From assembly GCA_021325135.1 (NCBI GenBank), contig JAJPHT010000014.1:42111-106110 (forward strand): DNA of 64,000 bases. The letters are read 5' to 3'. The notes below the pieces were generated by a model. The model was not told the DNA's origin. It made no database searches and was given only the letters and a program-made list of their open reading frames with translations. The stretch is from Pseudomonadota bacterium. Its GTDB lineage: Archaea; Thermoplasmatota; SW-10-69-26; JACQPN01; JAJPHT01. The position numbers and the translations under genes were made by a program. Positions 38,182 through 63,338 of the stretch are shown piece by piece. How positions within the stretch are numbered: the stretch's first letter is position 1; each line of letters opens with the position of its first letter.

Positions 38182-38212
38182 GGACGCCCGCGGGCGTCCC
38201 GAACCCCTTTTT
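38181..38212 (+). terminator. palindrome plus T-tract terminator
   Basis: Perfect 20-bp palindrome GGGACGCCCGCGGGCGTCCC at the stop, then TTTTT. Confidence 0.55.
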
Positions 38213-38235
38213 CACAGTCTTCCTCCACAAAACGT
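38211..38235 (+). promoter_or_regulatory. TTCACA-N3-TTCCTCC motif
   Basis: TTCACAgtcTTCCTCCACAAAACGT upstream of the 38273 gene. Confidence 0.7.
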
Positions 38236-38272
38236 TCCTTCACCTCGGGGTCTGCGGGCTTCGGGAGCGTCT

Positions 38273-38704
38273 GTGCGAGTCCTTGCGATCCTGGCGTGCG
38301 CCCTCCTGTTGCCGACGGTGGGCGCCCACGGACCCGGTTGCGGGGACAGCCGCGTCCACGTCTACGTCTCCACCCCGCTGGTGGCCAGCCGCGGCGTCGA
38401 CGCCTTCGCCGCCCCGGGCTGCCCCTCAGGCTCCGACCCGGCCTACGGCACGGGTGGAGCCTTCCTCCCCGCGGCCCACCACGGGGACCTCATCTGCGTC
38501 GCGGACAGCGTGGTCGCCCACGTGAGCTTCTCCATCGGGCGCGACCTGGACGGGGACGGCGTCATCTCGCCGGGCTCCGGCGACCAGGTCGCGGGCCCCT
38601 TCGACGCCACCTCCTGCGCCAAGGCCCCCTGGGAGGCCGGGGTGGACGGCGGATGGTGGATCATTCTCGGGTCCGAGGCGACCCAAGGGACCATTTCCGC
38701 CTAG
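38273..38704 (+). CDS. small secreted protein (GxGGAF/DxDGDG family)
   Basis: Signal peptide, VHVY, GTGGAF and DLDGDGVISP. Confidence 0.72.
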   Translation: MRVLAILACALLLPTVGAHGPGCGDSRVHVYVSTPLVASRGVDAFAAPGCPSGSDPAYGTGGAFLPAAHHGDLICVADSVVAHVSFSIGRDLDGDGVISPGSGDQVAGPFDATSCAKAPWEAGVDGGWWIILGSEATQGTISA

Positions 38705-38726
38705 GACCCTCCTAGACCACAAGCAT

Positions 38727-38742
38727 TTCACAATTTTCCTCC
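38727..38742 (+). promoter_or_regulatory. TTCACA-N3-TTCCTCC motif
   Basis: TTCACAattTTCCTCC upstream of the first giant ORF. Confidence 0.7.
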
Positions 38743-38777
38743 GATAACTTCAACCCCCGACAAACGGCATCGTTCGC

Positions 38778-61735: not shown

Positions 61736-61751
61736 TTCACATCTTTCCTCC
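61736..61751 (+). promoter_or_regulatory. TTCACA-N3-TTCCTCC motif
   Basis: TTCACAtctTTCCTCC upstream of the 61800 gene. Confidence 0.7.
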
Positions 61752-61799
61752 AAACAACCTAAGGTCCGTTGTTGTTTCTTCCGGCCCGGAGGCTATCCC

Positions 61800-62405
61800 A
61801 TGAAAACCCCCATGTTCGTCATGCTCGCCGCCGTCGCCATGATCGCGACCCCCCTCGCGAACGCCGGCACCGCCGCGCACCCCCACACCCACACCTTCGT
61901 CGGCGTGTCCGCCCAGGACGCGCAGATCCACGTCGACTCCAACGGCATCGCGTTCGACTCCGCCGTGGACACCGCCGTCGTCGGCCTCTGCGCCGACGTC
62001 ACGCCCGTCCTCTCCGCCATCACGCCCCCCACCGTCTTCCGCGACGGCGACACCGAGACGGGCATCGGCGGCGGCTGCTTCGCCTTCACCACCGTGTACG
62101 GCAGCGACGCCGGCACGACCGTGACCGTCTTCGGCCAGGACATCGTCGGCAGCATCAACACCGTCTACGTCGCGTGCGTCGACGTCAACGGCGACGGCCT
62201 CTGCACGCCCGACCTCGGCGGCGACCAGTACAACCTCTGCGAGAACGGCGTGTCGCTGACCCACGGCGGCAGCTGCCAGGTCTACGAGGACCCCGCGGCC
62301 GCCAACCCGTACGTCTACGTCCTCGTCCTCGCGGGCGTGACCGTGGACGCCAGCGGCGTGACCCCCACCGCGGCGGTCGCCGGCTTCCTCTTCCTGAGCA
62401 ACTAA
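61800..62405 (+). CDS. small secreted protein (GxGGxxF/DxNGDG family)
   Basis: GGAGG SD, signal peptide, HTF, DGDTETGIGGGCF and CVDVNGDGLCTP. Confidence 0.8.
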   Translation: MKTPMFVMLAAVAMIATPLANAGTAAHPHTHTFVGVSAQDAQIHVDSNGIAFDSAVDTAVVGLCADVTPVLSAITPPTVFRDGDTETGIGGGCFAFTTVYGSDAGTTVTVFGQDIVGSINTVYVACVDVNGDGLCTPDLGGDQYNLCENGVSLTHGGSCQVYEDPAAANPYVYVLVLAGVTVDASGVTPTAAVAGFLFLSN

Positions 62406-62569
62406 GCCGGTCTCGGGGTGGGGCCAACAAGGTTCCACCCCAATCCCGATATTGTTTTTCTAGAGAATTGTTGTGAGTTTCAGTTCCCCATCTCCCGTCT
62501 GGAGAAACGTTGATGGGAACTCGCCCGGATGCGCGGGGGCGGCCCGAAAGGGTCGTTTGGAGGCTATCC

Positions 62570-63214
62570 ATGTTCCGCGCCAACCGCTTCATCGTGCTCG
62601 CTCTCCTCCTCGTGCTCCCCTCGGCGCTCGCCGGCTCTGCCGCGAGCCCTGAGGTCCGCGACGCCTCTGGCGACGCGGCCGGCCCCCTCGACGTCGTGAG
62701 CGCCTGGGTCACCAACGACGGGAACTCCGTCGTCTTCCACGTCAAGGTCACGGACCTCTCCCAGCCCAGCCCCATCCTCGGCAGCAGCGGCGACCGCTAC
62801 TACTACCGCCTCGACTTCGGCCTGAGCACCTCCGCGGACCACTGGTACGCCGAGGGCCAGATCCAGAACGTCGACACCAGCAGCACGGCGGGCGTCAGCG
62901 GCACGGGCGCCCACGGCCCCATGGGCGTCTTCGTCGGCACGGGCTTCGCCGGTGGCAGCGTCCAGACCCAGGCCGCCACCATCGGCGGCTCCACCACCGT
63001 GGACCCCGCCAGCGGCGTGGTTTCCGTGTCCGTGACCCGCGACGCCCGCATCCCGCTGACCTCCGGCGCCATCGTCACCGGCCTCAAGGTCACCACGTAC
63101 TCGGGCTCCACCCCCTACGAGAGCCAGTTCGGCTCCCAGATCACGTCCGTCACCGGCGGCGACCGCACGGTGGCCGACACCACGGCCTCCGGCCTGAACT
63201 ACGTCGTCTCCTGA
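62570..63214 (+). CDS. secreted beta-rich protein
   Basis: GGAGG SD, signal peptide, EVRDASGD...LDVVSAW. Confidence 0.78.
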   Translation: MFRANRFIVLALLLVLPSALAGSAASPEVRDASGDAAGPLDVVSAWVTNDGNSVVFHVKVTDLSQPSPILGSSGDRYYYRLDFGLSTSADHWYAEGQIQNVDTSSTAGVSGTGAHGPMGVFVGTGFAGGSVQTQAATIGGSTTVDPASGVVSVSVTRDARIPLTSGAIVTGLKVTTYSGSTPYESQFGSQITSVTGGDRTVADTTASGLNYVVS

Positions 63215-63313
63215 GCAAGTCCCGCGGGGCGATTGCCCCGCTTTCTTCTCTCTCCTTTTCACAATCTTTCTCGCCTCACGTTCCGTGCAACCTCCCTCCT
63301 GCACAGGAGGAGC

Positions 63314-63338
63314 TTCACAAAGTTCCTCCACAAAACGT
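63314..63338 (+). promoter_or_regulatory. TTCACA-N3-TTCCTCC motif
   Basis: TTCACAaagTTCCTCCACAAAACGT; a weaker copy lies at 63258-63273. Confidence 0.7.

Follow-up and report, generated by a model that had tools for sequence, protein, structure and literature searches.

We describe a 20-bp promoter box found in the 64,000-nucleotide (nt) stretch of archaeal DNA analyzed here (the window; G000:C6:42111-106110, where G000 is the analyzed genome, a 3.77-Mb assembly of 51 contigs with 72% G+C). In the window, the box recurs as the word TTCACANNNTTCCTCC in a cluster of genes for secreted and surface proteins. This motif is the local form of aTTTCACA-r-n-a-a-t-y-CTCc-A-n-A-A, a sequence found in about 100 promoters of the genome. 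It is probable that the box is a regulator site fused to the upstream edge of the core promoter in these transcription units, that a small DNA-binding regulator reads it, for which a winged helix-turn-helix (wHTH) protein is the candidate, and that it gives positive control.

The window motif belongs to a genome-wide family of intergenic sites

The original prediction had placed exact copies of TTCACANNNTTCCTCC at positions 38211, 38727, 61736, and 63314, all on the plus strand. These positions are correct, and no match was observed in 100 dinucleotide shuffles. The copies at 38211 and 63314 do continue identically, sharing ACAAAACGT. Allowing two mismatches added the copy at 63258; this site and the one at 36752, which had been called weaker copies, are both members of the weight matrix family described below. 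The exact word occurs five times in the whole genome, four of them in the window, a count that understates the family. With one or two mismatches, the extended word is found before many unrelated genes. Relaxed forms stand in ~100 promoters spread over most contigs, and the proposal that the motif makes the cluster a regulon of its own is therefore not supported.

The spacing within the box is rigid. TTCACA-N6-CTCC is present 29 times in the genome, always in intergenic DNA, and spacings of N3 to N5 and N7 to N9 give only 0 to 3 matches. The shorter word TCACA-N6-CTC has 64 matches, 57 of them intergenic, compared with ~12.6% of the genome that is intergenic. Alignment of these matches yielded the extended consensus given above and revealed no conservation farther upstream (at most 0.13 bits from -40 to -4).

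An iterated weight matrix was then run over the 3.77-Mb genome, with the reversed matrix and ten column-permuted matrices as controls. At 14 bits it returned 138 sites (122 intergenic), at 16 bits 107 (103 intergenic), and at 20 bits 75 (74 intergenic). The reversed matrix returned 13, 2, and 0 sites at the same thresholds, and the permuted matrices returned 1 to 9 at 16 bits. A co-directional gene start lay within 220 nt at 69 of the 122 intergenic sites, which constitutes a sense bias. Look-alike downstream DNA was seen at only 2 of 103 high-scoring sites, so that the family is not explained by gene duplication. The box precedes 63 of the 1,965 genes that have an upstream gap of at least 80 nt; it is thus not the general core promoter, whose signal is AAA-N2-TTWA.

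Several familiar kinds of element were considered and discarded. The two halves of the box, TTCACA and yCTCC, are not self-complementary, and a AGAATTCT core is present in some copies only; a palindromic operator of the TrmB or Thermococcales glycolytic motif (TGM) type was rejected on this lack of dyad symmetry. A bacterial promoter with TTCACA as the -35 hexamer of a sigma-70 or extracytoplasmic function sigma factor does not fit an archaeal genome, and no sigma-70-like sites were observed around the copies. A reader of direct repeats of the OmpR/PhoB type was dismissed, as no Trans_reg_C domain is present in the genome. Finally, an Rfam scan of the whole window gave no match and several copies have no room for a promoter upstream, which makes a cis-regulatory RNA or riboswitch unlikely.

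The box is held in fixed register with core-promoter-like signals

The upstream regions of the 1,965 genes mentioned above served as the set of ordinary promoters. Counted from the start codon, these showed A at -36 to -33, T/A at -30 to -26, TT (A/T) at -11/-10, and C at -1. Anchored on AAA, the pattern was AAA-SS-yTyAw, with TT 22 to 23 nt on and the start codon 32 to 35 nt on. This succession of transcription factor B (TFB) recognition element (BRE), TATA element, and proximal element lies at leaderless distance, and most genes of the organism therefore appear to be leaderless.

The box lies directly 5' of an A-rich, BRE-like tract (at +16 to +20 from the first base of the box, with the last A at +19), followed by a modest TATA-like signal. 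Among 101 box-anchored sites, the positions outside the matrix showed A at a frequency of 0.37 at +25 and T at 0.38 at +26, and T at 0.36 and 0.41 at +41 and +42, against a background of ~0.16. Measured from the last A at +19, these signals stand at the canonical distances of +6/+7 and +22/+23, which places the predicted transcription start about 52 nt from the first base of the box. An element 5' of BRE and TATA in fixed register with the transcription start is the arrangement by which archaeal sites acting from upstream of BRE are recognized, and the box shows it relative to the predicted start. The architecture put forward in the original prediction, an activator site upstream of BRE/TATA, is thus supported (A-rich tract, modest TATA, fixed register); activation as the probable sign of control is weighed below.

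The shortest distances from box to ATG are 53 to 59 nt, with no Shine-Dalgarno sequence (SD), as at C19:5182, C36:62530, C40:91755, and C40:100125. A second class, which includes window genes B and F, has C/G at +51/+52, GGAGG at +52 to +56, and the start codon at +62 to +64. This design recurs at window positions 38263-38275 and 61787-61802, at C15:177462 of the same genome, and at C83:40248 of a relative (G007). In this class, the SD would form the 5' end of the predicted mRNA and give a leader of 10 to 12 nt in a mostly leaderless organism. The sequencing runs that hold window positions 61000-64000 were DNA runs only (soil and mine metagenomes); no RNA run was found among them.

Genes behind the box are enriched in predicted secreted proteins

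Genes starting within 220 nt downstream of a box were taken as box genes. A signal-peptide-like N terminus with at most one further hydrophobic segment was predicted for 58 to 62% of 60 to 67 box genes versus 24% of all genes (odds ratio, ~5; Fisher p ~1e-9), with a predictor that is crude and home-made and with paralogues that inflate the test. Housekeeping genes behind the box are few, comprising those for PheRS alpha (pheS-like), PdxT (pdxT-like), an acyl-CoA dehydrogenase, and PhoU. An equal frequency before housekeeping genes, one of the outcomes that the original prediction had named as fatal to it, was not observed; the enrichment for signal peptides is ~5-fold. Pfam analysis of 45 box-gene products, that of gene F among them, found a domain in few; the 27 families in total, the commonest of which had two members each, included pro-kumamolisin, TPR, fn3, CARDB, and BNR. 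The box stands before only 35 of ~500 secreted-like genes that head a unit and therefore marks a subset of the secretome, not all of it.

Box copies and genes in the window

The host is an archaeon: the window encodes a class-I CCA-adding enzyme, and the genome contains three TFB genes and one gene for the TATA-binding protein (TBP). A search of the assembly for a 16S rRNA gene found none, and for this reason the taxonomy rests on protein markers. The CCA-adding enzyme (window positions 11339-13456, minus strand) carries an N-terminal PAP2 (phosphatase-like membrane) domain, an unusual fusion. In the region of the finding, genes A to H all lie on the plus strand. The features are as follows, with product lengths in amino acids (aa); BRE-like and TATA-like assignments follow the inferred register.

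36752-36767, plus strand: weak box TTGCGAGGATTTCTCC (19.4 bits), 158 nt before gene A, followed by AGAACT and no TATA-like stretch
36910-38181, plus strand: gene A, 423 aa, signal peptide, no Pfam domain
38183-38202: G+C hairpin after gene A, ending 8 nt before the box at 38211
38211-38226, plus strand: box TTCACAGTCTTCCTCC (29.7 bits), 62 nt before gene B
38227-38240, plus strand: ACAAAA (A-rich, BRE-like) and CGTTCCTT at the TATA position
38273-38704, plus strand: gene B, 143-aa secreted protein, signal peptide, no Pfam domain, start codon GTG at 38273
38727-38742, plus strand: box TTCACAATTTTCCTCC (30.7 bits), heading the C-D-E operon, 51 to 102 nt before gene C
38743-38756, plus strand: GATAAC (BRE-like) and TTCAACCC (TATA-like, near the genome's commonest YTYAAG form)
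38778/38781 or 38829 to 48446, plus strand: gene C, giant surface protein with fn3
48443-57901, plus strand: gene D, giant surface protein with CARDB and NEW3
57916-61731, plus strand: gene E, giant surface protein with NEW3
61736-61751, plus strand: box TTCACATCTTTCCTCC (29.4 bits), 5 nt past the stop codon of E and 64 nt before gene F
61752-61765, plus strand: AAACAA (BRE-like) and CCTAAGGT (TATA-like), with TT at box positions 43-44
61800-62405, plus strand: gene F, 201-aa secreted protein, signal peptide
62462-62477, minus strand: inverted box CTCACAACAATTCTCT (29.4 bits), between F and G
62570-63214, plus strand: gene G, 214-aa secreted protein, signal peptide, no Pfam domain
63258-63273, plus strand: weak box TTCACAATCTTTCTCG (22.7 bits), no A-rich tract, 56 nt upstream of the copy at 63314
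63314-63335, plus strand: box TTCACAAAGTTCCTCC (26.2 bits) with ACAAAA, 102 nt before gene H
63416-64000, plus strand: gene H, signal peptide, no Pfam domain, running off the contig

Boxes stand before B, C-D-E, F, and H; D, E, and G lack one, and the box is therefore a marker of where transcription units begin. Judged from the register, gene B would be transcribed from near G38263, at the GGGAG that precedes its GTG, and gene F from C/G 61787/61788, directly at its GGAGG. The product of gene A is 55% identical to that of another box-preceded gene on contig C13. Genes C and D overlap by ATGA (48443-48446), which suggests translational coupling. Gene E has only the GTG at 57916, 15 nt past the stop codon of D, as no ATG is found near its signal peptide. 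At the C terminus, the products of C, D, and E all have a hydrophobic helix with an Arg-rich tail after it, which may serve as an anchor or sorting signal.

All of the copies named in the original prediction are intergenic and in the sense orientation, as it had stated, but it missed the strong minus-strand copy at 62462-62477. This copy lies 57 nt beyond the stop codon of F and is directed back into F. It is followed on the minus strand by AGAAAA and ACAATATC and preceded on the plus strand by ATATTGTTTTTC. One possibility is that it drives an antisense RNA; another, given the ATATTGTTTTTC before it, is that it serves as the operator of a rightward promoter of G, in the geometry found at the small wHTH genes described below. 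F and G were also considered as paralogues with a duplicated promoter, and this was rejected, as the two proteins are dissimilar.

The family of secreted proteins to which gene H belongs (N terminus MNKTSILLGALLAVAMAH...NANSVCPGANQP) has 19 matches in the genome; eight genomes from the organism's taxonomic family gave none. Many of the copies carry the box, and the family looks like a recent species-specific expansion.

The box and its spacing are conserved in related genomes

The relatives compared included two genomes of the same genus (G002 and G003), one from another genus of the family (G007), and one from another family of the order (G009). Exact matches to TTCACA-N6-CTCC numbered 29 in G000 (1 for the backward control), 9 in G007, 8 in G002, and 5 in G003; most other genomes were at control level. 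With one mismatch and a trailing A, the counts versus control were 40 versus 7 in G002, 24 versus 10 in G007, 20 versus 11 in G003, 9 versus 11 in G004, and 17 versus 19 in G009. In G002, G003, and G007, the extended consensus is unchanged, and the sites, which often occur in clusters, precede signal-peptide genes.

Orthologues of gene C are preceded by the box in G002 (CTCACAGGGTTCCTCC), G007 (TTCACAGCGTGCCTCC), and G009 (TTAACACTTTTCCTCC), and those of gene F in G002, G007, and G009 (the last as TTCATGGTATTCCTCC). In G002, the box GTCACAGCCTTCCTCCACAACGT also precedes a small gene with a predicted signal peptide that occupies the place of B next to the C orthologue, on its upstream side; we infer that this gene is related to B from its position and the similarity of its promoter, rather than from a search with B. 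Each orthologous promoter has a TATA-like word at +22 to +28 (TTCAAC, CATATG, ATTATG, CTTATC, CTAAGG, ACATAT, and TTTAAG), and the flanks have diverged. A retained box together with a retained TATA position reads, on this sequence comparison, as the footprint of a functional site. The inverted box behind gene F also is found behind the F orthologue of G002, on the minus strand as in the window. The gene H family was unusable as a phylogenetic footprint, since it is present only in G000 among the genomes compared.

A family of small AT-hook and winged-helix proteins is the candidate reader

The original prediction had proposed as regulators the proteins encoded at window positions 3894 (HTH_45), 6783 (EarA-like), and 23187 (double wHTH). 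Nothing links these to the box; it is a different family of small wHTH proteins, with genes on other contigs, whose own promoters contain the box. Among the box genes, C19:768-469 specifies a protein of 100 aa that has a C2H2-like zinc finger (ZnF) and gives a weak wHTH match. When the order was searched with this protein, homologues of full length turned up in seven of the family's genomes (G000 to G004, G006, and G007), and strong homologues only within that family. Short paralogues of 67 to 78 aa, comprising the wHTH alone, are present in G000 and G002. The ZnF-wHTH long form (e.g., C19:768-469 and C15:76460-76167 in G000) is present in one to two copies per genome of the family. In G001, G004, and G006, the long forms have lost most of the finger cysteines, and the same genomes show no enrichment of the box.

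Six of the seven short wHTH genes have an inverted, top-scoring box between a T-rich, TATA-like TTTT(T)ATT and the start codon:

G000, C7:54502: short wHTH gene with inverted box
G000, C44:~82343: short wHTH gene with inverted box
G000, C11:15262: short wHTH gene with inverted box
G002, C54: short wHTH gene with inverted box
G002, C10: short wHTH gene with inverted box
G002, C42:29959: short wHTH gene with inverted box

The best box of the genome (34.1 bits) is in the promoter of one of these, C7:54502, where it reads ...CCTTTTATTGGAGAATTATTGTGAA-13 nt-ATG. A site between TATA and the start codon is where autorepression usually takes place. In the stretch C7:53029-56199 (at 372-1348 and 1474-1677 within it), five tandem genes for secreted cysteine-rich mini-proteins directly adjoin this short wHTH gene on its upstream side, and a ychF-like GTPase gene follows it.

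The short proteins begin with KKKSRGRPR or GPGRP, and this RGRP/PGRP tract gives a weak AT-hook match. A structural model of the short protein shows a three-helix winged helix (predicted local distance difference test score, 83). Sequence and fold searches with the small wHTH returned only generic MarR/IclR/TrmB-like winged helices and no significant PDB match. On the model, the AT-hook could contact the AT-rich middle of the box. The association with the box makes the AT-hook and wHTH family the best candidate for its reader, and it is not proof of that role.

Weighing of activation against other explanations

In the reading that we prefer, the regulator would bind the box next to the BRE-like A tract and help TFB and TBP onto rather weak core promoters. 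Window units B, C-D-E, F, H, and perhaps A would be switched on together with ~100 others, mostly for secreted or surface proteins whose function is not known. Transcription would begin ~52 nt downstream of the box's first T and yield either a leaderless mRNA (ATG at +53 to +59) or a very short leader that opens with the SD. At the short wHTH genes, the inverted box between the T-rich TATA and the start codon would bring about autorepression.

A number of points weigh against this reading. The gene calls were made with a home-made model based on third-position G+C and codon log-odds. When the genome-average core-promoter matrix was slid along the box sites, the outcome as to register was ambiguous: it peaked at +39, with +52 as the second peak; the +39 peak arises because the middle of the box is AT rich. 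Compared with those of ordinary promoters, the core elements that follow the box are weaker by a modest margin only (A at the TATA position, 0.37 versus 0.53), and the ordinary set was AAA selected, so this comparison is biased. With transcription starting at +52, the mRNAs of B and F would have their SD at the very 5' end, an unusual arrangement. Some 40% of the box genes are not secreted, as judged by a home-made signal-peptide test. The box is missing from one short wHTH gene (G002 C42:35471) and from most genes of the long form, G007 has boxes and the long-form gene only, and a 67-aa wHTH protein has no obvious activation surface.

The box might instead be a repressor operator at all sites, the bound protein blocking TFB and keeping the regulon off until the regulator leaves. 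Between TATA and the start codon, the boxes of the wHTH genes do occupy the classical position for repression; the candidate reader consists of a minimal wHTH and lacks any additional domain; and the 3' end of the box overlaps the BRE-like tract. However, a rigid, single-base register at ~100 sites is expected of recruitment and not of plain occlusion, the TATA-like signals after the box are weaker than average, and activation is the role of the characterized archaeal factors with sites just upstream of BRE (PMC5512572). We regard repression throughout as unlikely. Less probable still, in our estimation, is a special core promoter used by one TFB paralogue, in which TTCACA would serve as an extended BRE and the AT-rich middle as TATA, with a start near +39. 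The presence of three TFB genes and one TBP gene would suit such a promoter, as would the best fit of the average core matrix at +39; the genes with an SD would obtain ordinary leaders of 23 to 25 nt, and the ZnF-wHTH gene on C19 starts 43 nt after its box. Yet that regulator gene is the only box gene that starts at +39 to +50, the minimum otherwise being 53 to 55, and the +39 score largely reflects the AT-richness of the box. The T at +41/+42 and A/T at +25/+26 suit a start at +52, and the orthologous promoters keep their TATA-like word at +22 to +28.

Two further explanations fare worse. That the box acts in the mRNA leader, its CCUCC pairing as an anti-SD with the downstream GGAGG, draws on the complementarity of CUCC to the GGAG(G) found before many start codons. 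No promoter-like signal was detected at a fixed distance upstream, however (at most 0.13 bits from -40 to -4), and the box at 38211 begins 8 nt past a terminator hairpin and that at 61736 begins 5 nt past a stop codon, so that neither leaves room for a promoter. Many box genes have no SD and start at +53 to +59, no Rfam match was found, and inverted copies lie in the promoters of other genes; we consider this explanation very improbable. An operator private to the surface cluster and read by a window-encoded wHTH protein would account for the location of four of the five exact genome copies in the window, but it is scarcely credible given that ~100 relaxed copies, which share the extended consensus, precede unrelated genes and are spread over most contigs. 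The wHTH genes of the window, moreover, lie at least 13 kb away and lack the box.

Relation to known archaeal systems and significance

EarA, Ptr2, and TFB-RF1, as well as the ara-box factor, have their binding sites immediately upstream of BRE, in promoters whose BRE/TATA elements are weak (PMC5512572). EarA recognizes four 6-bp repeats at the fla operon of Methanococcus maripaludis and is thought to recruit TFB to a weak BRE (PMC5512572). The system described here resembles that of EarA in having an element adjoining BRE/TATA, a small wHTH regulator (here a candidate), and cell-surface targets. It differs in having one asymmetric 20-bp box with a rigid N6 at ~100 promoters and a candidate reader that is not EarA-like. 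An EarA regulon proper (6-bp repeats, fla operon, and a PF07381 regulator) was rejected, as the box is single, its targets are secreted proteins of unknown function, and no box precedes the EarA-like gene at 6783. An activator site that abuts a suboptimal BRE/TATA is likewise involved with TFB-RF1 (PF1088) at the pf1089 promoter, with Ptr2 of Methanocaldococcus jannaschii, and at the Sulfolobus ara-box, and recruitment of TFB or TBP is their mechanism (PMC5512572). Those systems concern one or a few promoters and have been tested biochemically, whereas the regulon described here is computational, spans ~100 promoters, and is biased toward secreted proteins.

The TrmB family offers a second comparison, since two box geometries are found here (sense before BRE and inverted after TATA) and the candidate reader gives weak TrmB and IclR HTH matches. 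TrmB-family regulators (Tgr/TrmBL1, acting at the TGM) activate from a site upstream of BRE/TATA and repress from one downstream of TATA. The TGM is palindromic (TATCAC-N5-GTGATA), and the protein that binds it is large and senses sugar; the box is asymmetric, and its candidate reader is a 67-aa wHTH protein with an AT-hook-like tail and no ligand domain. The upstream activating sequence of GvpE in haloarchaeal gas vesicle clusters is a ~20-bp element of two related half-sites one helical turn apart that adjoins BRE, and GvpE is leucine zipper-like. The half-sites of the box, TTCACA at 0 to 5 and TyCTCC at 10 to 15, recall that arrangement, but the sequence and the type of regulator are different, and GvpE serves a single gene cluster only.

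A regulator box abutting BRE and an autoregulated small wHTH are thus of a kind already known. No description of this box, of a secretome-biased archaeal regulon of this size, or of the AT-hook-wHTH family was found in the open-access literature. To our knowledge, few archaeal activators and regulons have been described, and none in uncultured, high-GC Thermoplasmatota. A broader proposal, which we put forward tentatively and hold to be somewhat doubtful, is that this soil lineage of Thermoplasmatota runs a dedicated transcription program for much of its secreted and surface proteome. One box at ~100 promoters would be served by an AT-hook-wHTH family that activates from upstream of BRE and represses itself from downstream of TATA, regulators and boxes having multiplied with species-specific secreted families. 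If true, the regulon would rank among the largest built on a single site that have been proposed for an archaeon, and it would be the first directed at a secretome.

The surface cluster of the window is not a self-contained regulon. The box has a practical use, as it marks true starts of transcription units and aids the annotation of gene starts. It also offers a way to test how the organism coordinates dozens of uncharacterized secreted and surface proteins, three giant adhesin-like ones among them, and it names a small protein as the candidate switch.

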